A stretch of 64,000 nucleotides of DNA from the NCBI GenBank assembly GCA_963803045.1, contig CAWDLC010000015.1, positions 10,947-74,946 of the forward strand, written 5' to 3'. The notes under the pieces are model-generated. The model made no database searches. It had not been told where the DNA came from and was given only the letters and a program-made list of their open reading frames with translations. The position numbers were made by a program, and so were the translations under genes. This document shows positions 6,538-34,657 of the stretch, one piece after another (positions within the stretch are counted from its first letter, which is position 1; each line of letters starts with the position of its first letter). This DNA comes from Candidatus Binataceae bacterium. GTDB lineage: Bacteria > Desulfobacterota > Binatia > Binatales > Binataceae.

Positions 6538-6812
6538 TTAGGAGATGGCCACCGCCGAGGGGTGGATAGTTTTAGTTTCGACCGCGCGCAGGATCTTCTC
6601 TGGCCCCGCGCGCTGTCCGGGACTCTTGATCCCAGCGACGACGAATTTCGCCTTGCGGGCGGCCTCAGTGATTCCTTCGCGCCTTCCTTCGGCCTTCCGG
6701 CTGTCGGCCCAGCGGTTATACGCCGTTCGAGGCCGGTGCGCCGTGCCCCTGTCGATGATTCCGGAGTCGTAGAGGGACCTGGCTATTTCATGAGGCGAGA
6801 GGATGGCGGTCA
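6538..6812 (-). CDS. hypothetical 91-aa protein translationally coupled (ATGA) to the recombinase gene
   Basis: MTAILSPHEIARSLYDSGIIDRG… begins at an ATG overlapping the recombinase TGA (gcATGAccgcc on the minus strand). No recognisable domain. Confidence 0.35.
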
Positions 6813-7420
6813 TGCGGGGCGCGTTTTCTCCACCGGGGAGCGCCGCGACCTGCGGCTCTGCCGCGTCGTTATTTTGGTACGCCGCAGCGACTCGTAGAGC
6901 GTGGAACACGCCACGCGCAGGCGGCGCGCGACATCTCCCGGCGATTCGCCGCCTTCGATAGGCGGCGCGCATGCGCGATCTTCTCATCATCGAGTCTGGG
7001 CCTGCGGCCCAGCCTGATGCGGCGCTTTTTCGCGGCAGCCAAGCCGGCGCGGGTGCGCTCCACGATGAGTGAGCGCTCGAATTCGGCCAAGGCCGCCATG
7101 ATGTGCAACACGAAACGCCCACCCGCGCTCTCGGTGTCGATCGGATCGGAAAGCGAGCGGAAGTTGACGCCGCGCTGGCCAAGCGCGGCAATCGTCGCCG
7201 GGAGGTGCGAGAGCGAGCGCCCCAGGCGATCGAGCTTCCGAACAACGAGCGTGTCTCCGGGGCGAAGCGCTTTCAGCGCGCGGGCGAACTGCGGGCGGAA
7301 GACGGCGCTTCCGGTGACGCCGCGGTCGGCAAAAATCTTTTTGCATCCCGCAGCCTTAAGCGCGTCGCGCTGCAGGTTCAGATGCTGGTCAGTGGTGGAG
7401 ACGCGTGCATATCCGATCAT
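6810..7420 (-). CDS. serine recombinase (resolvase/invertase family), apparent 1-nt frameshift near 6945
   Basis: N-terminus MIGYARVSTTDQHLNLQRDAL…GDTLVVRKLDRLGRSL is the classic resolvase catalytic domain. The C-terminal HTH (…IEGGESPGDVARRLRVACSTLYESLRR) is encoded in a different frame from the catalytic domain; junction at the cgccgcc run, stop at 6810-6812. Confidence 0.8.
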
Positions 7421-7427
7421 GTCGAGT

Positions 7428-7453
7428 TGTCGGATGGATTTTTCGGACTGACA
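7428..7453. promoter_or_regulatory. candidate resolvase-type recombination subsite (TGTC…GACA) in the recombinase/cas6 divergent intergenic region
   Basis: TGTCGGATGGATTTTTCGGACTGACA: inverted TGTC/GACA ends about 26 bp apart, the layout of Tn3-family res subsites. It lies 8 bp upstream of the recombinase start. Speculative. Confidence 0.2.
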
Positions 7454-7616
7454 AGCGGTTGATTCCGTTGCGGTTCGGGTTTGTCCTGGAATCGGTCGTT
7501 TTCTGAACACGCCGCCGAAACCAGGGACTGACGATGATTGCAAGAGAGATGATATCCGAATAAAGCCAACCTATCCCTGCTGCGGAAATCGAAGCGGGCA
7601 TGCGGAAGATGGGGGC

Positions 7617-8609
7617 GTGACTGCCATTCCCCAAATACTGTCGTTCACGCGGTACCGCGTCACCTTCGAGGCGATGGAGACACTTGATCTCCCAAGCTAC
7701 CTCGGCTCGACCTTACGCGGCGCGTTTGGGCATGCGTTTCGCGCTGTCGCCTGCCCAGCGCCTCGCGGCCTTGATTGCCCTGTTCCTGCGCGGTGTCCGT
7801 ATCACCTGATATTCGAGACCTCGCCGCCGCCCGGCTCCGAAGCGCTGCGAACGCACGAGGATATTCCACGGCCATTCGTGATAGCGCCGGCGGACCTGCA
7901 GCAGACCGGTGGCGACGGGCAAGTCAGACATGTATTTCAGCGCGGAGATGAGGTCGCGTTCGAGCTTGTGCTGGTCGGCCGCGCCCAGGAATTCTTCCCA
8001 TACTTCGTCGTTGCGTTGCGCGAGGTAAACGAGATTGGGCGCGGACGGCAGGCGGTCGAGTTGCGGCGAATCGACGCAATCGGCGCGACAGGAGACGATT
8101 CTCGCTCCATCTACACTGCGTCGGAAAATTTGGTACGCGGATCGGGAGGAAGCATCAGCATCGAAGACTGCTCGGAAGCGGTGCCCGGCGGACCGCTGAT
8201 GATCGACTTTGTCACTCAAACCAGACTCAAGCACGAGGGCCGGTTTGTACGAACCCCGGAATTTCAGATTCTTTTTCGCAGGCTCCTCGGTCGGCTGTCA
8301 TCACTCTCGAGATTTCATTGCGGAGCGCCGCTGAAGGCGGATTTCCGCGAACTCATCGATCAGGCGGCATCGATTCGCTTGATTCAGGACGACACAAGGT
8401 GGACAAGATGGCAGCGCTACAGTTCGCGCCAGGATCGGCGGATGGAATGGGAGGGAATCGTGGGTCGCGCCACCTACGAAGGCGACTTCGCCCCGTTTTG
8501 CAAGTTCCTCTACTTCGGACAGTTCGTCCACGTCGGCCACGGCGCTACATTTGGCTTGGGGAAATATCGGACAAAACAGGAATCGAATGGTGCTCCTCTG
8601 TCAAAATGA
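7617..8609 (+). CDS. cas6: Cas6 CRISPR RNA endoribonuclease
   Basis: 330 aa with the C-terminal Gly-rich loop FGQFVHVGHGATFGLGKY typical of Cas6; first gene of the cas operon. Confidence 0.75.
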   Translation: MTAIPQILSFTRYRVTFEAMETLDLPSYLGSTLRGAFGHAFRAVACPAPRGLDCPVPARCPYHLIFETSPPPGSEALRTHEDIPRPFVIAPADLQQTGGDGQVRHVFQRGDEVAFELVLVGRAQEFFPYFVVALREVNEIGRGRQAVELRRIDAIGATGDDSRSIYTASENLVRGSGGSISIEDCSEAVPGGPLMIDFVTQTRLKHEGRFVRTPEFQILFRRLLGRLSSLSRFHCGAPLKADFRELIDQAASIRLIQDDTRWTRWQRYSSRQDRRMEWEGIVGRATYEGDFAPFCKFLYFGQFVHVGHGATFGLGKYRTKQESNGAPLSK

Positions 8610-8630
8610 TGCCAGCGGTACCGCCACCGC

Positions 8631-10196
8631 GTGGCCGAGGGCGGCAGGTGTCGCACCGATAGTCTGAGTGCGATGACCCTTCGATACACAGGTCATCCGA
8701 TAGCAGATGTGGGCGTCGCGACCATCTGCGCATTTTCCCAGAAGTCCGACCCGGCGAAGCTAACGCGACACGACCTTAAGCAGATTAGTCGCTTCATGGA
8801 GCGCGAGTACTTCTCTGGAAAGTTGCTGTCATATCTCACTTGCGTTTTTCCTAACGCCGCTTATGTAAACCCAACGATCAGCGAAGGTAAGAAAAAAGAC
8901 TACAAACGCGACATCCTTCAAGGGTTCGAGAATGACCCGGATCCGGCAGCGGCACATTTGAGCTGTGTTTTCTCTGGCCGACCTGCCGCTCGAATTGTCA
9001 ATCGCCAGCACGTTCCCCTCATCACGGGTGAGGGCGTGTTAAATTTCTTCCCTGACGGCGAGAGCGGAATGCCGATCAGCGCTGACTATCTGTTGGCCAT
9101 GCAGGCTTTTCCTCTGGGAGCACGTCGTTGCGTCGGCCGCGCCCTGGCAGTCCATTGTCCGGACGATCAGAGCCTCACATACGAATTTGCGCATCGGTTT
9201 CTCGAAGACAATCGCAAGCTTCTGCTACTCGCTCAGAGGTCCGGAGAAAAATACGAAGACGCCAAAGCGCCTCGGACACTCGTCGTCGATGCATTGATCG
9301 ACATAATGCACAGGAGGGGCCGGTCAACTTCAGCGGGCCACGCTGGCACTCGTGCGTCGGTCACAGTTTACCATCTCACCAATTCCGGACAGGGACCGGA
9401 TATTGATTTGTTCGAACTTCCGAGTGAAGTTGTTTCGTTCCTCGCAAAAGCTTCTCGCGCTGGCAGCTCTGATATCTGGAACAAAATCGTCGCGCGCGCG
9501 TGGGAAACCCCCGCGCCTTCGCACGCGAATGAAACTAAATCTTCCCGCAAAGGACCGAAACGGGAAAAGCCGACGGCGCCTCAAGCAGGCAAGAACCGAA
9601 ACTTTCTTTATGAAGATTTATTCCGGCTGCCGGAAGGCGCCGGCCGCTTTATTCGAACATATTTCTTACGCCGCGCTTGGCGTTTCGCGCGGCAACAAAG
9701 GAACGATCCGCGCGCCGAATACGCGGCGGCTCGAGAGGTCGAACTTGTCTCCTGGCCGCTCACCCATATGTTTCTGAAGGAGGTTCTCGGAATGGACAAC
9801 ACCCGGATTGAAGCGGTCCGCGAATTCGCAGACCGAGTGGCATCTCACATCATATCCGAGAATGATCGGCGGCTCTTTCGCAACCTCTGTATGACAGACA
9901 ATTATCCCGGATTTAGGAATCGCCTTCTCAAGGCCTCGGCTGAGCGTGTGGGCAAGGGAAAGACTCCCCTAACCTCGTTCGACGAATTTGTCCTCGTCTT
10001 CGAAGCCGCCGACGAACGGCCAAGAATCGACCGGAGGCTTGCTATCGATCTTGTGCTCATTCGATTGATCGAAAAACTGTATGCAGACGGGTGGTTCACG
10101 AAAGAACCAGACGCGGTCAAGGATCTGGCCGAAGCAACCGAGGAAACGGCCGATACGCAGTCTGCCGACGCCGACAGATCGAACCAAGCTAGCTAA
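8631..10196 (+). CDS. cas8: Cas8 large subunit (Cas8b-like by position)
   Basis: ~510-520 aa protein between cas6 and cas7 with no other recognisable domain; position and size fit the type I-B large subunit. Start may be 8673 (MTLRYTGHP). Confidence 0.55.
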   Translation: MAEGGRCRTDSLSAMTLRYTGHPIADVGVATICAFSQKSDPAKLTRHDLKQISRFMEREYFSGKLLSYLTCVFPNAAYVNPTISEGKKKDYKRDILQGFENDPDPAAAHLSCVFSGRPAARIVNRQHVPLITGEGVLNFFPDGESGMPISADYLLAMQAFPLGARRCVGRALAVHCPDDQSLTYEFAHRFLEDNRKLLLLAQRSGEKYEDAKAPRTLVVDALIDIMHRRGRSTSAGHAGTRASVTVYHLTNSGQGPDIDLFELPSEVVSFLAKASRAGSSDIWNKIVARAWETPAPSHANETKSSRKGPKREKPTAPQAGKNRNFLYEDLFRLPEGAGRFIRTYFLRRAWRFARQQRNDPRAEYAAAREVELVSWPLTHMFLKEVLGMDNTRIEAVREFADRVASHIISENDRRLFRNLCMTDNYPGFRNRLLKASAERVGKGKTPLTSFDEFVLVFEAADERPRIDRRLAIDLVLIRLIEKLYADGWFTKEPDAVKDLAEATEETADTQSADADRSNQAS

Positions 10197-10210
10197 ATGG
10201 GAGGGAACCA

Positions 10211-11284
10211 ATGGCTTTCGTGACTGGAATGATGCTGATCGAGGCTCCAGCGTCGGCGCTGAACAACGCTGGTGCCGAGGAAGGCGCACCCACCGACAAT
10301 ACAATAGCGGTCAAACGCATCAGAGGCCGCGCCGGAGGCGACTATCCGTACGTGTCGGCCCAAGCCGTTCGCTATTGGCTGAGAACCTATCTCGAGCGAT
10401 CAGTTCCGGACTGGAAGACGGCTCCCGTATTCCGCGAAGCGAAAATCGCATACACCGATGCGAATCCGTTGCGTTGGTGGGACGACGATCTGTTCGGCTA
10501 CATGCGCGCGCCATCTAAGCGCGCTGGTGCTCGCAGTGAGGAGGCGGGAAAGAATCAGACACCAGTGACCGGTGAGATCACGCGTATCTCGCCCCTCAGA
10601 ATGGGTACTCTCGTCTCAATCGGCCCGGTTCGAGTCGTTGACGATTTCGGCACAATGGCGCGGCACGACGGCGATCCAGTTCCGCACGAACATCAGTTCT
10701 ATCGAACTACACTTCAGGGCCTCATTTCCCTGGACCTGTCTACGGCGGGGACATTCTTCAACGGTGGGCGTGTTGGATATCGAAATCTCGATGAAGTCCG
10801 CGTCAAGCTAGCGGTAGAGCAAAAACTCTCGGAAGTCAGTGTCCACGGTCAGCCCGCGTTTCGGCTTCCGATCGTTGAGCGCGCCCGGCGCGTGGCCGCC
10901 CTAGTCAAGGCAATCGGCGAGCTCGAAGGTGGCGCTAAGCTTACCCTGCACTACACGGATGTGACGCCTGGCCTGCTGATTGGCGCCGTGCTCACGGCAG
11001 GGAATAACCCCTTTGCGAGAATCATTCGCCCCAACGCTCAAAGCGACCCAGAAATCGTTATCGATGCTCTCAAAGAGGTCCTGCGCGTGTACAAAGACCA
11101 AATTCTATCAGAGGTGTTTGTCGGGTGGGCAAAGGGATATCTCGACGATCAGCGCAAAAAGGTCGAAGAACTTTCTAAGGACGATTTATCCGGTGCGAAG
11201 CTTCGATGGGGGCATCCCCGCGAAATGATGGCGCAACTTGCCGCCGAGTTGTCGAAGGAAGGCAACCACTCCTGGTACGATTGA
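10211..11284 (+). CDS. cas7: Cas7 backbone subunit (Cst2/DevR-like)
   Basis: 357 aa; N-terminal PYVSAQAVRYWLRTYLE resembles the Cas7 I-A/I-B motif (Y.PYISGQSIRHALR). Confidence 0.8.
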   Translation: MAFVTGMMLIEAPASALNNAGAEEGAPTDNTIAVKRIRGRAGGDYPYVSAQAVRYWLRTYLERSVPDWKTAPVFREAKIAYTDANPLRWWDDDLFGYMRAPSKRAGARSEEAGKNQTPVTGEITRISPLRMGTLVSIGPVRVVDDFGTMARHDGDPVPHEHQFYRTTLQGLISLDLSTAGTFFNGGRVGYRNLDEVRVKLAVEQKLSEVSVHGQPAFRLPIVERARRVAALVKAIGELEGGAKLTLHYTDVTPGLLIGAVLTAGNNPFARIIRPNAQSDPEIVIDALKEVLRVYKDQILSEVFVGWAKGYLDDQRKKVEELSKDDLSGAKLRWGHPREMMAQLAAELSKEGNHSWYD

Positions 11285-11285
11285 A

Positions 11286-12035
11286 ATGGAGGTCCTTCGC
11301 GTAGAACTGGAAGTGCCGGTCTGCTCGTTCCGTTATCCGCATTTTCTGGTAGGCCGGCAGCTCACGTTTGATATGCCGCCGCCCGCGACAATTTATGGTC
11401 ATGTTGCGAGCGCGCTTGGAGACTTCCCCGATCCGCGCAGTTTTCGATTCGCATATACGTTCACGGCCACGGGCAAAGGAGAAGACCTCGAAAATCAGCA
11501 CATCATTGTGCCCGGTGGTAGCCGTCCATTTGCGGTCGGCGGCGCTGCCTACCCGTCGTCGACCAGCGCGACCGTGCAACCAACGCATCGCCAATTCCTA
11601 TTCGGCTGCCGCTTGACGCTTTATGTCGATCGACTCGATTTCGAAGAGGCATTTCGAAAACCTCGTTTCACAGTGGTCCTCGGCCGCTCACAAGACCTAG
11701 CAGCATATGGCAGGGTTGAAAGAGTCGAACTTCTCTCGGCGGAACTCGGATACTACGAGGATACGATTCTCCCTGCAGATTTCCGCCGCCGCACGGGCCG
11801 GGGCACCACCGTGCTGATGCCTCGGTACGTTGCCCCACCTCCTCAGCGAGAGACGGCCTTCGAACGCTATATCGTGCTTCGCGATCGCATTTTCGACGGT
11901 TCCAGCACCGCTAGTGACCTAGGCAGCCGTCAGATGCTTCGCTTCGAGGGAGAAAGCACAAAGCTTCTTGTCGATCCAGACTCCCCGCAATGGCGCGGCG
12001 CACACCGTGCGCTGGCATTTCATTCCTTCGCCTGA
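11286..12035 (+). CDS. cas5: Cas5
   Basis: MEVLRVELEVPVCSFRYPHFLVGRQLTFDMPPPATIYGHVASALG is the typical Cas5 N-terminus. ATG 11286 lies just after the cas7 stop. Confidence 0.8.
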   Translation: MEVLRVELEVPVCSFRYPHFLVGRQLTFDMPPPATIYGHVASALGDFPDPRSFRFAYTFTATGKGEDLENQHIIVPGGSRPFAVGGAAYPSSTSATVQPTHRQFLFGCRLTLYVDRLDFEEAFRKPRFTVVLGRSQDLAAYGRVERVELLSAELGYYEDTILPADFRRRTGRGTTVLMPRYVAPPPQRETAFERYIVLRDRIFDGSSTASDLGSRQMLRFEGESTKLLVDPDSPQWRGAHRALAFHSFA

Positions 12036-12042
12036 ACAGCTG

Positions 12043-14358
12043 ATGCTATCCACGGAGTCACGCAGGGTGCTCGCCAACATATGGGCGAAGAGTCCTAATC
12101 CGAATGAATCGACCGGCGAAACACTCTTGGTGCACACAGCCTCAGTCTTGTCCAGATTGGAAAGGTTATTCGATGTTCTGCCAGGACTCGCGGCCCGCGT
12201 TGGTGATATCCGCCTCTGGCATCGCGCAGCTCTTGCTTGTGTTCTGCACGACCTCGGGAAAGCAGCAGCAGGATTTCAGCGCGTGCTCAGAGAGAACGGC
12301 ACACGATGGAGCCATCGTCACGAAGTTCTTTCCCTCGCATTCCTCGATTGGGCGCTCCACAGGGACTTCGACGGTGATCTTCCTTGGGTAGCGGCAGGGA
12401 TCGTTTCGCATCACAAGGACATTGCGACCATCGACTGTCTCTATCCGCAAGCAGAAGAGCCGAAGAATGATCCCTTCGATCCGGTAACCAAGCTTGTTGC
12501 TGAAATACCTGATGGTGTTGCCGCAGCTCTTGCCGAATTCATCTGTTCCGAGATTCTGGACTGGTTGTCAAGGACACGTTTGCCTATTTTCGGAATCTCA
12601 CCGGCGATTCCGTCTGATCCCGCAGCGGATTTTCGCGCGAACGCAGTGATGCGCACCTACTCTGCCTTAGCTCGTTATCACAGTCTCTTCGATTCCCTTG
12701 AACGAGAACCATCCGAGTCAGCATCGAACCTTTCCGCGCTAGCACTCAGGGGCATCGTACTCCTCGCCGATCACACGGCCTCAGCCCACGTCACGCCGCC
12801 GCGCTTACCAGGCCATGACATAGCTAGGATTCTCGAACGGCTTAACCTACGTGCCGAAAGCCTGCACGGTCATCAGAAGACCGCGGCAACAGTACAGGGC
12901 AACACGGTGCTGGCCGCACCGACAGGCAGTGGCAAGACTGAGGCAGCGCTGCTCTGGTCAGCCAACCAGCGCGGCAATTCCCCGGCCGGCCGACTATTTT
13001 ACGTTCTCCCCTATCAAGCAAGCATCAACGCGATGTACGACAGGCTCACAAGGGTCTTTCCGCAACTGGTTACCCTCCAGCACTCACGCGCCGCGCAGGC
13101 TCTTTACCGTCGTCTTCTCGAAACCGACCGCTATGACCCATTAGCTGCCGCGAAGACTGCTCGCTTCCAACGTTCTCTCGCTCATCTGCACTTTCATCCG
13201 GTCCGTGTCCTTACTCCTTATCAATTGCTACGGAGCGCGTTTCGGCTCCGCGGATATGAGTCGATCATCGCCGACGCGACCAACGGGCTCTTTGTCTTTG
13301 ACGAAATCCACGCATACGAACCTGCCCGTCTAGGGATGATCCTCGGAATGTCAGAATACCTCTCGCGCCAGCTGGGTGGGCGCTTCATCGTAATGTCGGC
13401 CACCTTCCCAAGTGTCTTGCGAAGGGTCCTGAACGACTCCCTCGCCGCACCTCATCACATTTTCGCCGACGCAGCCTTGTATCAGAGCTTCGCCCGACAT
13501 CGCCTCGAGTTCGTTACCGGACGGATCGATGACGCTTCAATACTGGACAGAGTGTTTGGGCTCGCTCTTTCTGGCCAATCCGTGCTGGTGGTATGCAACA
13601 CCGTTTCCCGTTGTAAGCGCGTGCATCGCTTGCTTACCCCTTTGCTCGCGCAGCATGGCATCCAACCCGAAATCCTCCACAGCCGGTTCAATTCGCGTGA
13701 TCGACATCACAAAGAACGCATATTGGCCTCGCGGATGGGCACCAAAGAACGCCGGACTGCAGTGCCTCCGGTCGTGCTGGTTGCCACGCAAGTTGTCGAG
13801 GTCAGCCTGGATATTGACTTCGATACGATATTCACCGAGCCAGCCCCTCTCGAGGCGCTGATTCAGCGCTTCGGCAGGGTCAATCGCGCACGCAAAAAGC
13901 CGCCTTGTCCAGTATGTGTTCTCACGTCTCCGGCCTCTGGCCAGGGCGTCTACCGGGACTCGTTCGTCACCGCCGCGATTGATGTCCTCCTCCCTTGCAA
14001 CGGTACTGTGCTCGACGAATCGAAGCTGGGCGAATTGCTCGACCGGGTTTACTCGGGGGAAATCGAGCGCAACTGGATCGCCGAAGTGCAATATGGACGG
14101 GACGAGTTCATTGCGTCGTGCCTAAGCGACTTGCGCGCTTTCCAGTCAAAGCCCGAACTCGCCGAACAGTTCGATCGTCTGTTTGACGGCACTGAGGTCC
14201 TTCCCGAGAGCTTCGTCAATGAGTATGACCAACTAATGGAACGAGAACCGCTTAGGGCTTCCGAGCTTTTCGTACCGATCCCATTCCATCAGCTTGCTCG
14301 CCTTAGACGTGAAGGAAAAATCGATAAGCATCCCGATCGAGCAAGCGTTGATTGCTAA
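12043..14358 (+). CDS. cas3: Cas3 fused HD nuclease + SF2 helicase
   Basis: HD motifs LHDLGK…HHKD; helicase motifs VLAAPTGSGKTEAALLW (Walker A), FVFDEIHAYE (DExH), VMSATFP (motif III). Confidence 0.9.
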   Translation: MLSTESRRVLANIWAKSPNPNESTGETLLVHTASVLSRLERLFDVLPGLAARVGDIRLWHRAALACVLHDLGKAAAGFQRVLRENGTRWSHRHEVLSLAFLDWALHRDFDGDLPWVAAGIVSHHKDIATIDCLYPQAEEPKNDPFDPVTKLVAEIPDGVAAALAEFICSEILDWLSRTRLPIFGISPAIPSDPAADFRANAVMRTYSALARYHSLFDSLEREPSESASNLSALALRGIVLLADHTASAHVTPPRLPGHDIARILERLNLRAESLHGHQKTAATVQGNTVLAAPTGSGKTEAALLWSANQRGNSPAGRLFYVLPYQASINAMYDRLTRVFPQLVTLQHSRAAQALYRRLLETDRYDPLAAAKTARFQRSLAHLHFHPVRVLTPYQLLRSAFRLRGYESIIADATNGLFVFDEIHAYEPARLGMILGMSEYLSRQLGGRFIVMSATFPSVLRRVLNDSLAAPHHIFADAALYQSFARHRLEFVTGRIDDASILDRVFGLALSGQSVLVVCNTVSRCKRVHRLLTPLLAQHGIQPEILHSRFNSRDRHHKERILASRMGTKERRTAVPPVVLVATQVVEVSLDIDFDTIFTEPAPLEALIQRFGRVNRARKKPPCPVCVLTSPASGQGVYRDSFVTAAIDVLLPCNGTVLDESKLGELLDRVYSGEIERNWIAEVQYGRDEFIASCLSDLRAFQSKPELAEQFDRLFDGTEVLPESFVNEYDQLMEREPLRASELFVPIPFHQLARLRREGKIDKHPDRASVDC

Positions 14359-14429
14359 GGTGCCATACACTGATGAGGGGCTTGTGACAGAAGCGTCGGG
14401 CTACGATTAATTGTATTTGGGGAACCACC

Positions 14430-15608: not shown

Positions 15609-15611
15609 CTC

Positions 15612-17515: not shown

Positions 17516-17567
17516 GATGCTCGCCGAAGCGGCGAGGTCACTAAAAAAGGGCATTTCGTTACATGAG

Positions 17568-19928: not shown

Positions 19929-19950
19929 CAAACGGTCAAACCGTTTGCGC
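19929..19950 (-). terminator. possible intrinsic terminator downstream of trbL
   Basis: Perfect hairpin AAACGGT-CAA-ACCGTTT about 80 nt downstream of the trbL stop, followed by a T-rich stretch on the minus strand. Confidence 0.25.
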
Positions 19951-21124: not shown

Positions 21125-21133
21125 CGCAAGTCC

Positions 21134-21475: not shown

Positions 21476-21486
21476 AGAGCTCCCGT

Positions 21487-24713: not shown

Positions 24714-24725
24714 TGTTGCTGTCTC

Positions 24726-25064: not shown

Positions 25065-25083
25065 ATCCGATCCGGTCGCCTGC

Positions 25084-26402: not shown

Positions 26403-26874
26403 TCTCCTGTTGGTCGTGTCGCCGGTCGGCGGACTCCTCGGTCTGTTGTGCAGTCGGAGAATCGGTCTCGGTCAGTTCCATTACCGCGTGACGCCAGTTG
26501 TTGTAGAGGCGGGTTCCGGCCGTCAGCGCGCTTTCGCGCAGTTCGGCGGGAATCTCGGGCAGGTGTACCAACGAAACGAACGCGAGCCGGTCGAGCATCG
26601 CGAATAAGACATGCAACTCGTGGTAAAGCGAATTGAGCCGCTTACTCTGCGCTTCGATGCTGCTCCCGAGTCGCTGCTCCATCTCGATCAGCACGAAGTC
26701 GCTGGGTGCTCGGGTGCCGTTGTCGATAAGATGCTCGTAGTCGAGCAGGCACTGCCGGAGGTAACGAGACAGCGAGATTTTGTTTGCAGAAGCCGCCTCT
26801 CTGAAATGAGCGGCTTCCTCGATACTCAAATAGCAGGAGACTTCTCGCGCATTGTTTCTCACTTGAATAGCCAC
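26359..26874 (-). CDS. ribbon-helix-helix (CopG-like) regulator between traG and trbB
   Basis: 171 aa; N-terminal RHH-like segment YLSIEEAAHFREAASANKISLSRYLRQCL; same position as CopG-family regulators in Tn4371/ICEMlSym-type modules. Confidence 0.5.
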   Translation of the reverse strand: MAIQVRNNAREVSCYLSIEEAAHFREAASANKISLSRYLRQCLLDYEHLIDNGTRAPSDFVLIEMEQRLGSSIEAQSKRLNSLYHELHVLFAMLDRLAFVSLVHLPEIPAELRESALTAGTRLYNNWRHAVMELTETDSPTAQQTEESADRRHDQQENGDGVGSDSIHAAG

Positions 26875-28766
26875 TCCTTGCCCGAGTCCCTCAGAGCCTG
26901 CTCGCGCTCCGGCTCCGCGGTTGAATGTCGGTCGTTCGCTTCTTCGGTGAATCGATTCTTATGATTGGCGCCCGAGACCGGCGTCTCCGGCCATTCGCGA
27001 ACGGCTCCGATTCGATCCGAGTGTCGGGGCGGATCGAGCTTGGCGCGGGCCGAAAATTCCTGGTCGAGGTAGTAGCGAATCTTGGTTCCGTAGATCGGTG
27101 GACTTCCTGGAGCGAAGATCAGCGCCGCATCCTCGGGCAATCGCATCGTCTCGTCTGGCGTGATCAATGGGCGCTGTATCGAGGGTTCTGACACGGTGGT
27201 CCGACTGTCCGAGTAAGTGCGGTGCTCGTGGCGCACCGTTGCCGCGCCTGCCATCTCGGATATCAGCCGCGCGGTTTCAATCTTGTTAGGCGCGTATGCG
27301 ACACGAACCGCGCAGTTCGAGACGATCGATTCGTCGTGGCCGTAAGCGGCGTAGAGCTGGCTCAGGTCCTGGGCGATCAAGTAAGCCTTGATTCCGTAGC
27401 CTGCCGCGTAAGAGAGCGAGCTCTGGAAGAAGTCGAGGCGTCCGAGCGCGGGAAATTCGTCCAGCATCAGCAATAGGCGACACATCGGCACCGCGTGTTC
27501 ATTCGAAGGCGAAGTCTCGGTGAGCCGTGCGCCGATCTGCGCGAGCAGGAGGCGCATCAATGGCCGAGTGCGCGTCAGGTCCGATGGCGGCACGGTGAGA
27601 TAGAGGCTCACCGGCCGATCGTGGTGGGTCAGATCGGCGATGGAAAAGTCCGACGCGGCCGTATTCGCGGCAATGATTGGATCTCGATACAGAGTGAGGC
27701 AGCGAGTCGCTGTGCTGAGGACAGAAGTGCGTTCATTGGGGCTCTTGCTGAGCACCGCTTGCGCCGCTCCGGCAACCACGGCGTGCGTGATCTTTTGGGC
27801 GTGCGAGGCGTCGATCATGGCCTGGACTGCCTTCTCCTGATCGCGATCTGGCGGGTTCAGGAATTTCAGACATCCAGCGAGTGTCTTGTCGGCCTCGGCA
27901 TGGATCACGTGAAGGATCACGCCGGTGAGGAGATCGTGCGCGGTCAGGTCCCAATGATCGCGGGGGGCGTTACCGGCCGGATCGATCAGCATGTCCGCGA
28001 TGTTCTGCGCGTCCTTGACCTCCTCGGGGCCAAGTCGGATTTCAGCGAGCGGGTTGTACCGTGCTGCTGTGGTGTCAGTGCATGTCGGATCGAACCGCAG
28101 GCAGAGGTTGCCAAGGCCTTTCTGTCGCCAGCCCGCGGTGAGCTTCCAGTTTTCGCCTTTGATGTCGTGGACCACGACACTGTGGGGCCAACTGAGCAGG
28201 GTTGGGACTACCAGTCCCACGCCCTTGCCGGTGCGCGTCGGCGCAAAGGCGAACACGTGCGATGGCCCCGCATCCCGGAGATAGTAAGTCTTCCTTCCAT
28301 TTCGCCATGCGCCGACATAGACGCCACTGTCTGGGTCGAGCAGCCCGGTGGCGCTGATCTCCTTCCTGCCGGCCCAGTGAGCTGAACCGTGTAGATCGTC
28401 GGTTCTCGCTCCGACGGACCGGGTGAAATGAACGGCGATCATCGCCACGACTGTGACGATCAAGGTTGGGTATTCGAAAATGCGCATTCCTGCGCTTAGC
28501 ATCGGCTTTGCGGCGGCGACGTGTTGCCATTCCCATGCCCAAATCAGAATGCTCCACGGCCGGTAAAAGGGTCCGACAAAGGGCAGAGTCGCCAGAGGTG
28601 CGCCCAACACTGCGGAATGTCTGAGCAGCGCGGCGATGTGCTGGGTTGCAATCGCGAGCGAGAACGCAGCGGTAAAAGCGACTGCCGCTGTCGCGGCGAG
28701 GCGTACGTCCCGCTCTGCTACGGTGTGGGAAACTGGCATCCTGTACGGTAGCAACTGATTAGCCAT
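26859..28766 (-). CDS. traG: TraG/VirD4 type IV coupling protein
   Basis: 635 aa; N-terminal TM segments; Walker A …APTRTGKGVGLVVPTLL…; TAATG overlap with the relaxase stop. Confidence 0.9.
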   Translation of the reverse strand: MANQLLPYRMPVSHTVAERDVRLAATAAVAFTAAFSLAIATQHIAALLRHSAVLGAPLATLPFVGPFYRPWSILIWAWEWQHVAAAKPMLSAGMRIFEYPTLIVTVVAMIAVHFTRSVGARTDDLHGSAHWAGRKEISATGLLDPDSGVYVGAWRNGRKTYYLRDAGPSHVFAFAPTRTGKGVGLVVPTLLSWPHSVVVHDIKGENWKLTAGWRQKGLGNLCLRFDPTCTDTTAARYNPLAEIRLGPEEVKDAQNIADMLIDPAGNAPRDHWDLTAHDLLTGVILHVIHAEADKTLAGCLKFLNPPDRDQEKAVQAMIDASHAQKITHAVVAGAAQAVLSKSPNERTSVLSTATRCLTLYRDPIIAANTAASDFSIADLTHHDRPVSLYLTVPPSDLTRTRPLMRLLLAQIGARLTETSPSNEHAVPMCRLLLMLDEFPALGRLDFFQSSLSYAAGYGIKAYLIAQDLSQLYAAYGHDESIVSNCAVRVAYAPNKIETARLISEMAGAATVRHEHRTYSDSRTTVSEPSIQRPLITPDETMRLPEDAALIFAPGSPPIYGTKIRYYLDQEFSARAKLDPPRHSDRIGAVREWPETPVSGANHKNRFTEEANDRHSTAEPEREQALRDSGKEWLFK

Positions 28767-29840
28767 TAGCGTGTTCGTCCCTTCTCTCGCTCGGCAACCT
28801 GAACATAGATGACCTTGCGCCCGTTCTTCTCGAACTCCGCGCCGCTAAGGGTCACGACCGCGCCCACTTTAAGCCGCTGCTCGCCGCGCGCCTTTTCGAT
28901 CGCCGGGGTTTGGCGGATGTAATGGAGCTTGCCGTCATTGCCTTCGATCAGGAGATACCGCCGGTCGATCGTCTCGTTCTCGAGGCCGGTGCCGATCACC
29001 CGGCCGGTCACCTGCTCGCCCGGTTTCAGTTCCGTAACGCGAAGCGGCGCCTGCCGGTCCTGAATCTGATCGAGGTGGCGCGCCCTCGTCTTGATGATGT
29101 CGATCGAGAGCTGGTGCTGACGGAGCATGTGTTCGAGGTCGGGCGATATCTGCCAGGAAAGTTGATCCATGCGCCGCGCAAGTCCCACGCTTTCAAGGAA
29201 GCCGAGCCTCGCGACGTTTTGCGCCTGACGTTCGCGCGCGGCTTCGTTGCGGTGCTGCACGTCATTGAACGTGACGATGTTCCGCGAGTTCGCCTGCCGG
29301 AGCAGGGCACGATCTATTTCCGTGAATTGGTCACGCGTGACGGCTTGCCCTCTCGATTCCAGAATGTCGCGCTCTACCCTGAGACCCAGCTCGCGGCTCG
29401 CGATCTCCTGGCTCCTGTCCCGGATCCCGGACTGGATGTATCGGCGGTCAATCGAAAGCGCCTTGCCCGATTCGGTGACGCCACGAATCAGAATGTGGAC
29501 GTGCGGGTTGTCGGTGTTGTGATGATCGATCGCCGCCCACTTGAGGCGCGTTCCTGAGATCGCGTTCCATCTGGGCGACCAGCTCCCGCGCATGATCTTT
29601 GAGATCCATTTCAGCGCCGTTCTCAGGCGAAACGATGATCCGAAACAGCCGAGGGTCGCCCGACTTCTGCCAGCCGGCCAGAAGCTTGGAGAGGCTGATG
29701 TCTTCGCGGATCGCGTCGAAGCCCAATCCCTTTGCGTCGTCACGCTGCGCGCCTTCCCGCGCGAGATAGCGTCCGTGCGCGGCCCACGATGCCGACCTCG
29801 TATTGCGCGAGTACGAAACCTTGACGACGCTCCGTTGCAT
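28766..29840 (-). CDS. MOBP-type relaxase (TraI/VirD2-like), apparent 1-nt frameshift near 29570; start uncertain (29840 or 30029)
   Basis: N-terminal part (…MQRSVVKVSYSRNTRSASWAAHGRYLAREGAQRD…RLFRIIVSPENGAE…ELVAQMERDL) is in the ORF 29448-30029 frame. Continuation GTRLKWAAIDHHNTDNPHVHILIRG (3-His motif) is in the ORF 28766-29743 frame. Confidence 0.75.
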
Positions 29841-30021
29841 GGAAGCGCGAGGCTCTCGCGATACGCCGGCGCCTTGTCGTCCGAGACGCGTGTTCATACG
29901 GCTGGGCTGCCCTGCCCGTCCATGCTGCTTCGCCGCCGCGAGCCACCATCGCCTCGCGCGATGCTGTTCTCCGCGCCGGCGCGGAGGACGCGGCTGCATC
30001 TCAAGGTCGCGGCGCAGCAGG

Positions 30022-30411
30022 TCACTCATCTAATGTTTCTCCGCCCAAAAGCCGCAGCATCATTCGCGGAAGTTCAGCGGAATTGCCTGGCTCGTCGCCG
30101 TTCAGCGCGCCGATGATGCGCCGGATGTGTTCGCTCGAAAGCGTTAAACTGTGCAGCTCCTTGGATCGGCTCCACGACTTCCAAGCACGCTTCGAAGTCG
30201 CGCGGGCGTCGAGCTTTGCTCGCCCTGCCAAGGCGATCGCCGTGCGGCGTGTGGCGGGAAGGTCCGACAGACGCGCGGCAAGTTCAAGTAATCCACCGAG
30301 CAGCAGGTCGGGCGGCTCGCGGTCCAGCCCCGCAATCGCAACCAGCCCGCCGAGATTCGCCAGGTGATGGACTCTAAGTCCCTGCTCTCTGGTGTGCAGT
30401 TCGTCCGCCAT
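30022..30411 (-). CDS. hypothetical protein between traF and relaxase (possible relaxosome accessory)
   Basis: 129 aa, ATG overlaps region after the corrected traF stop; no recognisable domain. Confidence 0.3.
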   Translation of the reverse strand: MADELHTREQGLRVHHLANLGGLVAIAGLDREPPDLLLGGLLELAARLSDLPATRRTAIALAGRAKLDARATSKRAWKSWSRSKELHSLTLSSEHIRRIIGALNGDEPGNSAELPRMMLRLLGGETLDE

Positions 30412-30414
30412 AAC

Positions 30415-31024
30415 TCACCACGTGAGAACCGGCTCCAGCGCCGCTCGAACTGAGCTCGCCTGGCACCGGCCCGAAGTAACGAGAGTCCCAACTTCGCGCG
30501 TCTTTGGTTCCGAACAGCCAAACCTCTCCGGGGTGCACCGTGTAGCGGCCCCACGCAACGTGGTCTAGCGATCCCCCGCGGCTGTCGCGCGAAAGCGTGG
30601 CCGAATGTTCCAAACGTTGGCCGTTGACTGCGATGTAATCGCGCATGATTTCAACCGAGTCTCCGGGCAGCGCACTGAGTCGTTTGCCGACCGGCTCGAT
30701 GCCGTCGCCGCAACCGCGTCCGCGCAAGAGATAGCCGCGCGAGCGCCCGAGCTGTGCGATCGCATCTGGCAGACACGCCAGCACCAAGTCGCCGCGCGAC
30801 GGTGCGCGGTTAACCATCCGGTAGATCCCTGGCGGACACGCGCTATCCGTGAGTCCGATCTTCAAACCCAGAAGCTGGAAGCCCAAGACTGGTATTGCGA
30901 TTCCCGCGCAGAGGACGACCGGAAACAGTGATCGTCGTGCAATTGTTCGGGTACGGGGCAAGGCGATGCGGTACGGGGAAGAAAATCCGCGCCGGATCTG
31001 GGGAATATGCTCAAAAGCGCGCAC
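30415..31024 (-). CDS. traF: TraF conjugative signal peptidase (S26 family), apparent 1-nt frameshift near 30458
   Basis: …PGEVWLFGTKDARSWDSRYFGPVP; canonical C-terminus ASSVRAALEPVLTW* appears in the +1 frame (stop 30415-30417), while the listed frame runs on into GELSSSGAGAG…. Confidence 0.75.
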
Positions 31025-31049
31025 GGTACGGTAAAACCTTTATCTTGCC

Positions 31050-31325
31050 CTACGAACGCATCGCCCCCGCTGCCCCGTTCCTCTCCTCCCTCTGCACCAA
31101 TCGCTCCGCGCCCCCTTCCCGTTTGCTCCGCCACCCTCGGAAATCTCGGTCGCTCTCAACGAAATGCTTCAGCATCTCGATCGCCACTTCCTTGGCGTCC
31201 GTCTCCCGATGCAAGCTGTCGCGCAAATACCCGACGTATTCGTCCAGCGAGGCCTTGAGGCTGCCCGGCAATGTCAGCCGCAACTGTACGGGAGGTAAAT
31301 CCTTGTCCTTGAGTCTGAGTTTCAT
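31050..31325 (-). CDS. DUF2274-like small protein (normally terminal gene of Ti/ICE-type trb operons)
   Basis: 91 aa, MKLRLKDKDLPPVQLRLTLPGSLKASLDEYVGYL… resembles DUF2274; located right after trbI. Confidence 0.55.
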   Translation of the reverse strand: MKLRLKDKDLPPVQLRLTLPGSLKASLDEYVGYLRDSLHRETDAKEVAIEMLKHFVESDRDFRGWRSKREGGAERLVQREERNGAAGAMRS

Positions 31326-31350
31326 CTCTCCAGCTCCTTTCTCCGTTTCT

Positions 31351-32529
31351 TCAATTCCTGTACGGCCCCGGCAGTACGAGGTCGTTCGTCACCATCACGT
31401 TGAACTGGTAACCCGGCCGTATCTCCAAGGTGGGCGGGATGTTCATTCCGCGCTGCAGGCTGCTCTGCGCGACTTGCCCAAGTTGCTGACTCGCCGCCGC
31501 ACCGCCCATCTCACTGAGCAAAGACATTTGGTTCGGCGGCGCGTAGCCGTACCCGTAGGGCCCGGAGAATCCGGTGCCTCCGCCGAACGCTCCCATCTGT
31601 CCAACCATCTGGCCGGCGCTGATCACGGAAAGGAGCGCCGCGGTGCCGAACGTCTTCAGGTAGTGGTTGTTCACCTGATCGCTGAATCCGGCGTAGCCCG
31701 CCTGGTCGGCGCCCGGCATCTCCGGTATCTCCATGCTCGACGCGTTCGGGAAGATCAGCCGCTTCCATTCGATCTGCGCGCGCTGCTGTCCATACGCCGC
31801 GTTCGTCTGGTACGAGCCGATGAGCTTCGAGCCTTGCGGGATCAGAACCCATCGTCCGGTTGCGGTATCGAAGACGTTCTCGCGAACCTGCGCGAGAACC
31901 GGTCCCGGCAGTTCCGAATTGATGCCGCTGATCAGAACCGCCGGAATCACGCTGCCTGCTGTGATCAGAAAAGGAGACACTGGCGGTTTGAGGCTCGCGA
32001 TCGCGTTGGCGCCGTTGCTCTGGCCAGATGGCGTGACCGTAAGCTCGTAGGGCCTGGTTGCCCCTGCTTGACTCGCGATGCTTGGAACTTCCAGCGTATC
32101 GCCGTGGTGAAACGCTTGGACCATCGGGGGCGCGGAGAGCGCCTTTACATATTCCTCCTCCTGCAACGCGGCCAGCCTGCTGGGTGGACGCGCTGGGAGG
32201 GGAACAGCAGGAGCCTGCGTCGCGGTAGCGGGCAACGCAGGAGGAAGTGGAACAGAATTGATCTCAGCAGGCTTCGGCCTCCTGGCCTTCGCTTCCAGTT
32301 CCGCGATGGCTGCACGTTCCTCGTTGGATGTGACGGCGGCTGCATCGTCGCTGCGGGCCCTCGGGCTCGAATCCGGAGAGTCCGAATGCAGCGCGACGAT
32401 CATCACAAGCAGTGCTGCCGCGATTACCACGCCAGCGACAATAACCAGAGTGCGTGTCAGCCGTGGGCCGCCCCCGCGCGATTGGTGAACGCGCGGGCCG
32501 GTCGGTCCAATTGCCGCTGCCGTGGCCAT
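31351..32529 (-). CDS. trbI: TrbI/VirB10
   Basis: 392 aa; N-terminal TM, Pro-rich linker (PLPPALPATATQAPAVPLPARPP), conserved VirB10 C-terminal beta domain (…RLIFPNASSMEIP…). Confidence 0.85.
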   Translation of the reverse strand: MATAAAIGPTGPRVHQSRGGGPRLTRTLVIVAGVVIAAALLVMIVALHSDSPDSSPRARSDDAAAVTSNEERAAIAELEAKARRPKPAEINSVPLPPALPATATQAPAVPLPARPPSRLAALQEEEYVKALSAPPMVQAFHHGDTLEVPSIASQAGATRPYELTVTPSGQSNGANAIASLKPPVSPFLITAGSVIPAVLISGINSELPGPVLAQVRENVFDTATGRWVLIPQGSKLIGSYQTNAAYGQQRAQIEWKRLIFPNASSMEIPEMPGADQAGYAGFSDQVNNHYLKTFGTAALLSVISAGQMVGQMGAFGGGTGFSGPYGYGYAPPNQMSLLSEMGGAAASQQLGQVAQSSLQRGMNIPPTLEIRPGYQFNVMVTNDLVLPGPYRN

Positions 32530-32532
32530 GAT

Positions 32533-33471
32533 TCACCTCGCCGTGCCCGTGTACCGGATGCTCACGCGGTCCTGCTCACGGCCGACGCCCGAAACCAGCA
32601 CCGCTTGGTCGAAGAGTTTGTCGACCACGTAGTAATCGCCCCTTACGCGATAGTTCACCATCTCGCTGCCGTCGCCTGCGGCGACCAACAACGCGGGAGC
32701 TTCGCTCGACTTTGTAGTCGCGGGCATCTGGATGTAGATGTGCGTACCGTCATCGAATGCTCGGACCGGTTTCCACGGCACCTTTGGTCCAGACACCGTG
32801 TACGAAAAATTGAGAGCGCCCGGATCGAGCGAAGCCAGAGAAGCGACCACGCCGTCCGGCTGTGATTGCGCATCGCGCGCCTTGGCGGCTGTGTGGTCGG
32901 CGTCCTGCATCGCCTGCTGGAGTTCCTCAGGATAATAAAAGGCGACTTCCTGCATTTCGCGTCCGGCGCGCGAGCGCAGCATTAGGTGGTAAATGTGCTT
33001 CGTCGTGTAGATCGTGAGATTGGTGCTGATACCGGCAGCGGTGGGTTTTATCGCAAGGTGCGGAGTCGGATTGCGCGGATCGCCCGATGAGGCGGGCGTC
33101 ACGAGCCAGCGTTCGCTGTCGCCGCTGGCAACGTCCGTAATTGTCTCGCCCGGCTCAAGCTGGATGTCGGTGGTTCGCAATGGAGCGCAGTCAACTGCAG
33201 GCTCTTGTCCTTCTTCATACGGGTAAAGCTCGCGGTGCGGCGTCTTATAAACCTGCCACGCGCCGTCTTGCTGATGTTGTTTGACCGCCTCCCGAACCTC
33301 TTGGGGCTGCTGCGCAAGTATCTGAGCGCCCGTTAGCGGTGCGGGCTCCGGCTCGGGAGATGGTGCTGCTTTCGTGACCAGCGTCAGCGGCGGCGGTGGC
33401 GTTTGCTTCGCCGAGCAAGCGGCGAGCGTCAGCGAGAGAGCGACGAACCCAAATGTGCCAATGCCCTTCAT
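32533..33471 (-). CDS. trbG: TrbG/VirB9
   Basis: 312 aa; lipoprotein signal (LTLAACSAK), VirB9-like C-terminal domain. Confidence 0.8.
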   Translation of the reverse strand: MKGIGTFGFVALSLTLAACSAKQTPPPPLTLVTKAAPSPEPEPAPLTGAQILAQQPQEVREAVKQHQQDGAWQVYKTPHRELYPYEEGQEPAVDCAPLRTTDIQLEPGETITDVASGDSERWLVTPASSGDPRNPTPHLAIKPTAAGISTNLTIYTTKHIYHLMLRSRAGREMQEVAFYYPEELQQAMQDADHTAAKARDAQSQPDGVVASLASLDPGALNFSYTVSGPKVPWKPVRAFDDGTHIYIQMPATTKSSEAPALLVAAGDGSEMVNYRVRGDYYVVDKLFDQAVLVSGVGREQDRVSIRYTGTAR

Positions 33472-33483
33472 CGTGATCCCCTC

Positions 33484-34149
33484 CTAACTTCGCTGCTCGG
33501 TCCAATTGAGCTGCGTGACGTAAAATCCGAGCGGGTTCTCCAGGATCGAGGCGTCGGAGGTCGCCGAAATGATCGTAGTGTCGAGCGCCGCTTCCCAATG
33601 CGTCGTGGCGATCGGAGAACCGTCGAGGCCTGATTCTTCCTCGGTCCATCTCACCTGCCACGTCGCTTTCGACAGCGGCAGGATCGAATCGATTTGGACG
33701 CTCACAGATTGGTGCTGAGCGACCTTGAACGGATCATGCTCAAGGTCGTTCTCGTGGTAGTAGTTCTCGAGAAACTTGTAAGCCGGTCCGCGAGCGCGGC
33801 TGTACACCTGCCCGATCAGCTGGTGCTCGGCTGCCGGATCGGTGATCACCTCGCGAGCGTTGCGGATGAAGGCCGCCAGCTCGTATCGCACCATCCGGTC
33901 TGTGCTGATCCGAGTCGTGTTTTCGGTGAGCGCGCTCGGCGCGCCGAGCGCGTATCCGAGCTTGTCGACTTCCACGACATATGGAATGAACTTGCTTCGA
34001 GTGCTGACCCAGACCATTCCGAAAGCCAGCACAAGCGTGATGACCATCATGCCGGCGGCGGTGATCTGCCAGTTGCGTTTGCCGAGAACCAGATCAGCGT
34101 AACGCTCGTCCCATTCCTGCCGCGCTTTGAGATAGACGCTGCCTTCCAT
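33484..34149 (-). CDS. trbF: TrbF/VirB8
   Basis: 221 aa; bitopic with N-terminal TM (MMVITLVLAFGMVWV), VirB8-like periplasmic domain; first gene of the codirectional block. Confidence 0.8.
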   Translation of the reverse strand: MEGSVYLKARQEWDERYADLVLGKRNWQITAAGMMVITLVLAFGMVWVSTRSKFIPYVVEVDKLGYALGAPSALTENTTRISTDRMVRYELAAFIRNAREVITDPAAEHQLIGQVYSRARGPAYKFLENYYHENDLEHDPFKVAQHQSVSVQIDSILPLSKATWQVRWTEEESGLDGSPIATTHWEAALDTTIISATSDASILENPLGFYVTQLNWTEQRS

Positions 34150-34287
34150 GCCGACGCCTCGCTGCCAACGATCGAGCGCGAGTTGTGAATTTCGCGCCCT
34201 CTGGGTTCAGCACTTGAGCAGATTCTGTGCCACTTGCTCGGAACACGAGTGCCCGCCTATCGTCGATCCCGTCTTCTTAAACCGGAG

Positions 34288-34657
34288 GAGGCGCCGTATG
34301 GAAAAGGTGAATGTCGCGGAGAAGTTCGATCTTTTCAGCGACTACTGGAGTCCCAAGATCGCCGCAGAGTTGAACGACTCGTACATCAAACTGACGAAAT
34401 TGAAAGGTGAGTTCGTTTGGCATCACCACGAAAATGAGGACGAGCTCTTTTTCATTATGAAGGGTCGGCTACTTATAAAGCTGCGCGACGGCGAGGTTCG
34501 AGTCGGCCCCGGAGAATTCGTGGTCATCCCTCGTGGTGTCGATCACCTGCCAGTAGCCGAGGACGAAGTTCACGCCATTTTGATCGAACCGAAGACGACG
34601 CTGAACACTGGCAATGTGCGCGGCGAGAAAACGATTGCGAGGTTAGAACGCATTTAG
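34288..34657 (+). CDS. cupin domain protein
   Basis: MEKVNVAEKFDLFSDYWSPKIAAELNDSYIKLTKLKGEFVWHHHENEDELFFIMKG…; cupin motifs (HHHENEDE / G.FVVIPRGVDH). Confidence 0.6.

Follow-up and report, generated by a model that had tools for sequence, protein, structure and literature searches.

How does a complete CRISPR-Cas system (CRISPR, clustered regularly interspaced short palindromic repeats) come to stand beside a full conjugation apparatus in the chromosome of a soil bacterium, and does the one travel as cargo of the other? The question is raised by a 64,000-nt stretch of Candidatus Binatus DNA (soil, uncultured), here called the window, which was studied with a crude gene call and Pfam and NCBIfam scans. 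The part from 6869 to 34149 encodes a small serine recombinase, a complete type I-B Cas set with an array of 13 repeats, a Fic protein and the full complement of Trb-type conjugation proteins, coupling protein and relaxase included. The initial annotation had named these components (recombinase, CRISPR-Cas, Fic, type IV secretion system (T4SS), relaxase and type IV coupling protein) and proposed that CRISPR-Cas and Fic are cargo of an integrative conjugative element (ICE) or an integrated plasmid. All are present by Pfam and NCBIfam, with some coordinates corrected below. On balance it is probable that approximately 6225-36124 is part of an ICE, of a family common in Candidatus Binatus and in other soil metagenome contigs; that it is a truncated remnant; and that the CRISPR-Cas system is its cargo.

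The argument starts at the right end of the block, in a tRNA gene. The 3′ 52 nt of a tRNA-Leu(TAG), from anticodon loop to 3′ end, stand displaced at 36125-36176 (plus strand) and form an attR-type junction; they are 100% identical to nt 30-81 of the tRNA-Leu gene in a related genome, L006 (loci from other contigs carry the prefix L). An orphan fragment had been placed at 36146-36177; it is real, and longer than was claimed. To its right, NadE (39824-42010) is 93-96% identical to its counterparts in five Binatus genomes (L006-L010), among them that of Candidatus Binatus soli UBA7539. In all five, the right flank of the window (NadE, a lasso-peptide-like cluster and an ABC exporter) adjoins an intact tRNA-Leu(TAG). 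On the other side of that gene four of the five share about 1.9-2.4 kb of mutually conserved sequence, none of which is in the window, and no window protein encoded in 1-36161 was found in the flanks of L006-L010. The window itself holds no 5′ part of tRNA-Leu, no second copy of the 52 nt, and no degenerate or full tRNA-Leu. The tRNA is thus a 3′ fragment here and an intact gene with the same right flank in the relatives; therefore, the DNA left of 36125 is an insertion or replacement at the tRNA gene. A presence/absence comparison with close genomes had been suggested from the start, and its outcome is that the block is missing at this site in five of five related Candidatus Binatus genomes. 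The chromosomal side of the junction is eroded. In the relatives a conserved segment of about 890 nt separates tRNA-Leu from the ABC gene. Of this segment only 47 nt survive in the window (36179-36225, within 36177-36231; equivalent to segment positions 658-704), which implies one deletion on either side of the remnant.

Inside the junction lies a conserved A+T-rich sequence (36012-36124), 80-84% identical to L165 4092-4206 and including a 36-nt perfect block. The copy in L165 adjoins a 30-nt tRNA-Ser fragment (nt 10-39), broken at the anticodon loop; next come RelE, Peptidase_U49 and a 170-nt remnant of the start of trbF. In the window the space between this sequence and trbF holds small cargo of another kind (34298-35660; family scan), a cupin on the plus strand and an SMP-30/gluconolactonase-like protein on the minus strand; the corresponding cargo is RelE and Peptidase_U49 in L165, and PIN/HTH and acetyltransferase genes in L176. 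The boundary 36124/36125 is taken as the true element end because this terminus meets the anticodon arm of a tRNA at two independent junctions, and small cargo and then trbF come next in each case. Both junctions read ...CCGGTGCC on the tRNA side, and CCGGTGCC is presumably the integrase core site.

Two further observations concern this terminus. L165 4053-10000 has, in order, the tRNA-Ser 5′ fragment, the terminus, RelE/Peptidase_U49, the trbF remnant, a full tRNA-Ser, an integrase and a complete conjugation module; its two trbF starts have diverged (81% and 73% identical to the window), and the architecture may represent nested or tandem elements, or an inversion. The 36-nt block is non-coding (TCTCAGATCCTGTGGATAAATCCGGAAGTGGGCACT, minus strand) and is shared by window 36012-36047 and L165 4171-4206, the trbF genes being otherwise about 73-81% alike. 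Its role may be that of an arm site for the integrase or of some other cis element; it has no match in IMG/VR.

The family to which the element belongs emerges from a TrbL scan of metagenome contigs, which yielded 73 loci, more than 25 of them long enough to judge gene order. These (TrbL 70-96% identical) share the order traF-traD-relaxase-traG-nikA-like-trbB-C-D-E-J-K-L, and trbF never follows trbL. Instead, trbFGI-DUF2274 lies upstream of traF in L004, L132, L165-169, L172 and L176; more distant loci (TrbL 51-54%) have the usual trbL-F-G-I order. That the trb operon of the window had been split by rearrangement, or by integration between trbL and trbF, was considered and rejected, since more than 25 relatives have the same order. 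In L165-169 (TrbF 73%) a tRNA-Ser(TGA) is followed by a 411-aa tyrosine integrase with Arm-DNA-bind_3, Phage_int_M and Phage_integrase domains, by one further gene, and then by the conjugation module from trbF onward; therefore, the family is one of tRNA-integrating ICEs. Several close relatives of the conjugation module, in L170-L175 (TrbF 87-97%), are decayed: trbF is 5′-truncated beside insertion sequence transposase, thiolase or radical-SAM genes, there are insertions in trbG, and trbG and trbI survive as fragments. Remnants of the ICE family of the window seem common.

In the window the conjugation genes form an unbroken minus-strand run from trbL to trbF (20030-34149), and the mating-pair-formation set TrbB, C, D, E, J, L, F, G and I is entirely present (Pfam, tblastn). 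The first half of this set, trbB-C-D-E-J-(K-like)-L, occupies 20030-26402 on the minus strand (Pfam; tblastn with Comamonas plasmid Trb proteins). Next to it on the same strand are a NikA/CopG-like small DNA-binding protein (26359-26874; PF21983, E=3.6e-5), whose position between traG and trbB is kept in relatives, the TraG type IV coupling protein (26859-28766; PF02534, E=3e-105) and the relaxase (28766-30029; PF03432 and DUF3363 by Pfam and tblastn). Then follow traD, traF (an S26 peptidase) and DUF2274 (30022-31325, minus strand; Pfam), and the second half of the mating-pair-formation genes, trbI, trbG and trbF, which lies upstream of the DNA-transfer genes (31351-34149, minus strand; Pfam). 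Beyond the other end of the run, a small open reading frame (ORF) adjoins trbL (19669-20061, plus strand); it has homologues beside trbL in L137 and L159, and no Pfam or PADLOC match.

Two genes of the module are interrupted as assembled. trbB has a +1 insertion at about 25699 and the relaxase gene one at about 29555, neither found in relatives. Truncation was rejected for both, as each is full length once the inserted base is removed: TrbB becomes a 327-aa protein with a Walker A motif, and the relaxase a 421-aa protein with DHHNTDNPHVH, within the 357-518 aa of relatives' relaxases, which are encoded in one frame. Compared with all relatives, or with a second, independent assembly of this strain, the window shows single-base insertions or deletions at 608, 25699, 29555 and 6030-6060. 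The window assembly probably contains errors of this kind, and its apparent pseudogenes need care.

What, then, lies downstream of trbL? In nearly every related locus the DNA there is different, so this is a variable slot. Its contents include Fic/PDC-S24 proteins; SNF2-, ZorD-, DrmD-, BrxH- and DpdE-like helicases; PLD nucleases; AbiEii; BrxC/D; DUF499; RES-Xre pairs; and RAMP proteins. As the slot holds genes of defence type in relatives, the CRISPR-Cas system and Fic gene of the window stand in the defence-cargo position of the family. The proposal that they are cargo gains from this: both are in a position where more than 20 related elements carry variable, mostly defence-type, genes.

The Fic gene of the window lies at 17568-19214 (minus strand; PF02661, E=1.5e-14). 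Fic homologues, 46-48% identical to that of the window, lie downstream of trbL in 10 related loci and are the commonest gene of the slot. PADLOC places the window protein in its candidate defence family PDC-S24 (E=1e-182), with a match that spans model positions 5-491 of 497, and it and the slot homologue both match that family over full length. Its catalytic motif, HxFx(D/E)GNGRxxR, is intact (HPFEDGNGRLHR, at residue 336). It would act as a defence AMPylase or a toxin-like one.

A second type I system is found in the slot of a sister element. In L143 (11257-21035), 2 kb past trbL, there are a RES/Xre pair and a different type I cas set. Its cas6 and cas1 are 80% and 91% identical to those of the window; its cas3, large subunit and cas7 are of another kind, and the products include a Csa2-like Cas7, a helicase-nuclease resembling Cas3g and a 604-aa protein without a match. 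This suggests that the effector module has been swapped between conserved cas6 and cas1 ends.

The cas operon of the window is complete: cas6-cas8b-cas7-cas5-cas3-cas1-cas2-cas4 at 7617-16441 (plus strand; Pfam, NCBIfam), with starts at 7617 (cas6), 8631 (cas8b), 10211 (cas7), 11238 (cas5), 11968 (cas3), 14430 (cas1) and 15612 (cas2), and cas4 at 15881-16441. Judged by its sequence, the system is of subtype I-B: NCBIfam identifies Cas8b1/Cst1 (TIGR01908), Cas7/Cst2 (TIGR02585, E=1e-48) and Cas5b (TIGR01895). Cas6 is recognized by Pfam; Cas3 has HD and helicase domains, and Cas1, Cas2 and Cas4 are intact (Pfam, NCBIfam). A repeat search places the array at 16586-17516 (plus strand). Its 37-nt repeat (GCTTCAAACCGATCCCCGATGAGGAGGGGACTGAAAT) occurs 13 times without variation, and the 12 spacers are each some 36-41 nt long. 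The 144-nt stretch on the cas4 side is taken as a putative leader. Inverted or direct repeats flanking the cas module are of chance size only.

A second strain (sample ERZ25039501) allows the array to be compared. Its contig L001 is 97-99.7% identical to the window from 6230 to about 30 nt beyond the last repeat; the cas/array module is 96.8% identical and the repeat is the same, and its four spacers are all different. Spacers that differ despite such similar cas genes point to recent spacer acquisition or turnover in the module. The CRISPR-Cas system of the truncated remnant is, in the light of this comparison, most likely still in use.

What the array is directed against would bear on the suggestion, made in the initial annotation, that a conjugative element with its own CRISPR-Cas system is engaged in conflict with other elements. 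The 12 spacers match nothing else in the window, so there are no self-targets in it. They have no match among PLSDB plasmids and chance-level matches only among GenBank phages, and nothing was found at nine or fewer mismatches in 1.7 Mb of fetched related loci; three spacer cores and the repeat have no match in IMG/VR. Spacer 2 matches traD of relatives in part, over 22-25 nt; this match was discarded, as it does not extend to the whole spacer. Binatota are poorly represented in the reference collections; such a null is absence of evidence and is not counted against the conflict idea.

The left end of the element is harder to place. In the left flank lies a DUF72 pseudogene (5467-6214, minus strand; PF01904), truncated at its 5′ end and with a frame change near 6030-6060. 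Its C-terminal ORF covers PF01904 positions 67-216 and the upstream frame positions 31-62, from about 6214; positions 1-30 were not found in any frame. The leftmost segment derived from the element is 6225-6353. It is 74% identical to a stretch of L175 (12492-12622) that, in this other remnant of the ICE family, has a decayed trbI on one side and ssb-ardC on the other; the homology ends at window 6225. The segment was considered as a dispersed repeat, and this was rejected as there is no other copy. Independently, contig L001 begins at window 6230. The left junction is placed at about 6215-6230 because the end of L175 homology, the start of L001 and the DUF72 truncation converge there.

Just inside this junction is the recombinase, of the small serine (resolvase/invertase) type, at 6869-7543 on the minus strand (PF00239, E=1.9e-43; catalytic domain residues 42-174). 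The start at 6538 given to it earlier belongs to an overlapping ORF without a family match. Its NCBIfam matches to the XisF and Ccr recombinases involve the N-terminal domain only. The simplest view is that it came with the cargo as a resolvase or invertase, and nothing ties it to integration; a part in integration is not supported, and relatives have a tyrosine integrase beside trbF.

How complete is the element? The absence of a tyrosine integrase and of a full attachment-site (att) pair from the window, already noted in the initial annotation, is borne out by Pfam on selected ORFs, by tblastn and by tRNA scans. The 52-nt fragment at 36125-36176 is the one att end, with no second copy within the window. 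No convincing integrase, ssb or ardC remnant was seen in the window, by tblastn with the recombinases of relatives or by Pfam on selected ORFs. An SSB-like match at 6700-6870 (21-63 aa, E=0.03-0.3) was set aside, as it is not collinear with L175. A large serine recombinase, too, was not seen among the selected ORFs scanned with Pfam or by tblastn with the recombinases of relatives; only the small one is present. When a tyrosine-integrase element uses the anticodon-loop sublocation, its opposite end is expected to hold the intact tRNA and, as a rule, the integrase. With moderate confidence, the element is truncated on its distal side and unable to excise alone. The claim of an ICE therefore holds in part. 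What stands is that DNA of a conjugative element was acquired horizontally at a tRNA gene, and that five related genomes lack it there; what does not is completeness, as the element seen here is without integrase and attL and its left edge adjoins a truncated pseudogene.

Several findings weigh against a truncated ICE remnant with CRISPR-Cas cargo. The left boundary is drawn from one 129-nt match at 74%, a contig end and a weak argument from Pfam coordinates, and only 1.5 kb was read beyond the left edge of the window. In L165-169 the integrase lies between the tRNA and trbF, and the window has a different type of end at that place. The trbB and relaxase frameshifts may be assembly errors and not decay, because the window also has an extra base within an acyl-CoA dehydrogenase gene when set against a separate assembly of this strain. 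No protospacer was found for the 12 spacers; hence, the function of the system is something we infer, and no protospacer-adjacent motif was derived. Finally, Fic and trbL do not follow the cas/array module in L001; their place is taken by DUF2924, a large serine recombinase and tRNA-Ser(GCT), so the module may move independently of the T4SS element.

One alternative is an intact ICE larger than the window, which would extend left through DUF72, DUF1329 and CoA-transferase as metabolic cargo and have its integrase and reconstituted tRNA-Leu outside. It is consistent with this that the window holds no full tRNA-Leu(TAG), though the cell presumably needs one, and that the conserved tRNA-Leu neighbour of the relatives is nowhere in the window. 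The left flank encodes metabolic genes, CoA-transferase and DUF1329, with acyl-CoA dehydrogenase (ACAD) and enoyl-CoA hydratase (ECH) a little beyond its edge. For the CoA-transferase the best homologue other than itself is only 81% identical, against 93-96% for NadE in the five Binatus genomes, and the cluster is therefore not obviously core in the closest relatives. However, a homologous cluster of short-chain dehydrogenase/reductase, ECH, ACAD, CoA-transferase and DUF1329 is found in other Binataceae among ordinary metabolic genes, in one case on a contig of 1.3 Mb. The G+C content of 1-7000 is that of the chromosome; the scanned ORFs of 1-6200 (not all ORFs there) include no conjugative-element gene; and the DUF72 truncation and the ends of L175 homology and of L001 all fall at about 6215-6230. 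A larger intact element is thus unlikely, if still worth keeping in mind.

The L001 arrangement suggests another possibility: two units side by side, a T4SS/Fic remnant (17.55-36.1 kb) and an independent resolvase/CRISPR-Cas module (6.2-17.55 kb), either part of the chromosome or of a different mobile element, so that the CRISPR-Cas system would not be conjugative cargo. Besides the other DNA to which L001 joins the same cas module (DUF2924, the large serine recombinase, tRNA-Ser), orientation and composition speak for it: the cas operon is convergent with Fic and trbL in the window and co-directional with trbL in L143, and the G+C of the cas region (0.56-0.58) is below that of the T4SS core (0.60-0.63). 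But the cas module lies within the DNA missing from five relatives at the site, and the segment beyond it, 6225-6353, matches a remnant of the same ICE family. Homologues of a gene adjoining the L001 array are among the cargo genes of L103 and L149, and the cas locus of L143 occupies the same slot of a sister element. Two separate units are accordingly quite improbable.

A separate observation concerns the large serine recombinase of L001. In L160 (1993-4279) a recombinase 52% identical to it adjoins a trbL homologue that matches only from residue 64; there a recombinase element may have inserted into trbL.

The integrated plasmid offered as an alternative in the initial annotation is not supported. 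No match to Rep, ParA or ParB families was obtained among the scanned ORFs of 6.2-36.1 kb, so that no replication or partition gene was found there, and the end is a tRNA att-type junction. A megablast search of 6-56 kb for plasmid relatives gave only matches of about 60-150 nt, in trbE and trbB.

That the region is ordinary, vertically inherited chromosome, with a chromosomal CRISPR-Cas system and an old fixed T4SS, is very improbable indeed: the second strain (L001 and L004, ERZ25039501) does have both parts at 96-99% identity with the same right junction, but five related genomes have an intact tRNA-Leu without the block, the tRNA is cut at the anticodon loop, and the T4SS family is found in many different contexts.

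The loci show the plan of the family: a co-directional 14-kb module, in the order trbFGI-DUF2274-traF-traD-relaxase-traG-nikA-like-trbBCDEJKL, followed by the variable defence slot; here the slot holds the Fic/PDC-S24 gene, the complete type I-B CRISPR-Cas system with its 12 spacers and then the small serine recombinase. If the locus is indeed a truncated ICE remnant, a history can be proposed. Members of the family would transfer by relaxase nicking, coupling through TraG and export by the Trb channel. On arrival, a tyrosine integrase would have recombined the element with the anticodon-loop region of tRNA-Leu(TAG), leaving the displaced 3′ tRNA half at the trbF-side end. In residence, Cas1-Cas2-Cas4 would add spacers on the cas4 side, at the putative leader; CRISPR RNA processed by Cas6, with a Cas8b-Cas7-Cas5 complex, would recruit Cas3 to degrade matching invading DNA, so that host and element would both be protected. 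Later the distal part, with the integrase and the reconstituted tRNA, would have been lost, and element DNA would thus end at the 5′-truncated DUF72 pseudogene.

Similar arrangements are known elsewhere. The pKLC102-like ICEs of Pseudomonas aeruginosa, at tRNA-Lys, carry CRISPR-Cas systems of type I-C (van Belkum et al. 2015, PMC4669384). They too are tRNA-integrating conjugative elements with a complete type I CRISPR-Cas system as accessory cargo; the differences are subtype, tRNA and phylum, with I-C at tRNA-Lys in another phylum there, and I-B at tRNA-Leu with Trb-type conjugation genes here. Moreover, the pKLC102-like elements encode machinery for chromosomal integration, whereas the window copy is without an integrase. 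Conjugation of pKLC102 is of the GI type, with a type IVb pilus.

For the conjugation genes, a closer comparison is a Comamonas testosteroni plasmid (NZ_CP139995.1; L086), which has TrbB, C, D, E, J, L, F, G and I, TraG, a TraF S26 peptidase and a PF03432 and DUF3363 relaxase, at 32-48% identity to the window proteins. Its gene order is the usual trbB...L-F-G-I, whereas in the window and more than 25 relatives trbFGI-DUF2274 lies upstream of traF, traD, relaxase and traG, and trbL is last; its relaxase has 634 aa, as against about 420 in the window. Tn4371 and ICEs of the ICEMlSym type are comparable to Trb-type systems with a DUF3363 relaxase.

CRISPR-Cas systems are frequent on plasmids and enriched on conjugative ones, with spacers biased to other plasmids (Pinilla-Redondo et al. 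2021, PMC9071438), and defence systems are pervasive on integrated elements (Botelho 2023, PMC10201445). As in other conjugative defence hotspots, a fixed backbone position holds interchangeable defence systems, and CRISPR-Cas travels with conjugative DNA; for plasmid-borne arrays a bias towards other plasmids is reported, and the window array gave no spacer match for comparison. A complete type I-B CRISPR-Cas system and a Fic gene in the cargo slot of a conjugative element is a fresh example of an already known arrangement. CRISPR-Cas and other defence genes as cargo of ICEs or plasmids being established, the result extends this picture and does not change it.

What the window locus and about 70 metagenome loci related to it add is the outline of a conjugative-element family, with its backbone, its tRNA attachment sites and its defence-gene slot. 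Complete CRISPR-Cas systems move with this family, which is useful for genome annotation and for the study of the spread of defence in soil. In the literature searched, no description was found of conjugative elements in Binatota, a soil phylum without cultured members, or of a hotspot downstream of trbL in Binatus-associated ICEs. A wider proposal can be made tentatively: that this is an undescribed, widespread ICE family of Binatota and other soil bacteria, with a split trb operon, integrating in both orientations at the anticodon loops of tRNA genes by way of a common core that contains CCGGTGCC, and with a defence slot downstream of trbL whose type I loci keep their cas6 and cas1 ends while swapping effector modules, the arrays being directed mainly against competing elements.

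Other parts of the window were observed in passing. At 48901-51914 a 3-kb insertion lies beside tRNA-Arg(CCT); it is not in the relative L007, in which only 24 nt separate this tRNA from the next gene that the two share. The insertion, which looks like a small defence islet, has genes for a TIR-domain protein of 421 aa (PADLOC matches to PDC-S66 and ThsB-like models), a 239-aa protein and a CopG-type antitoxin. Another tRNA-associated islet may be present at 60097-62939, where AbiU2-type HEPN and Xre-type HTH proteins are encoded in DNA of lower G+C between a partial tRNA and tRNA-Arg(ACG). The partial tRNA (60097-60155; Rfam model positions 8-63) was missed by ARAGORN and is not a copy of either tRNA-Arg gene. 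In the right flank, at 36232-39702, genes for an ABC exporter, a transglutaminase-like protease and a PqqD-like protein stand in a row; they resemble a lasso-peptide cluster and are kept in the Binatus relatives.

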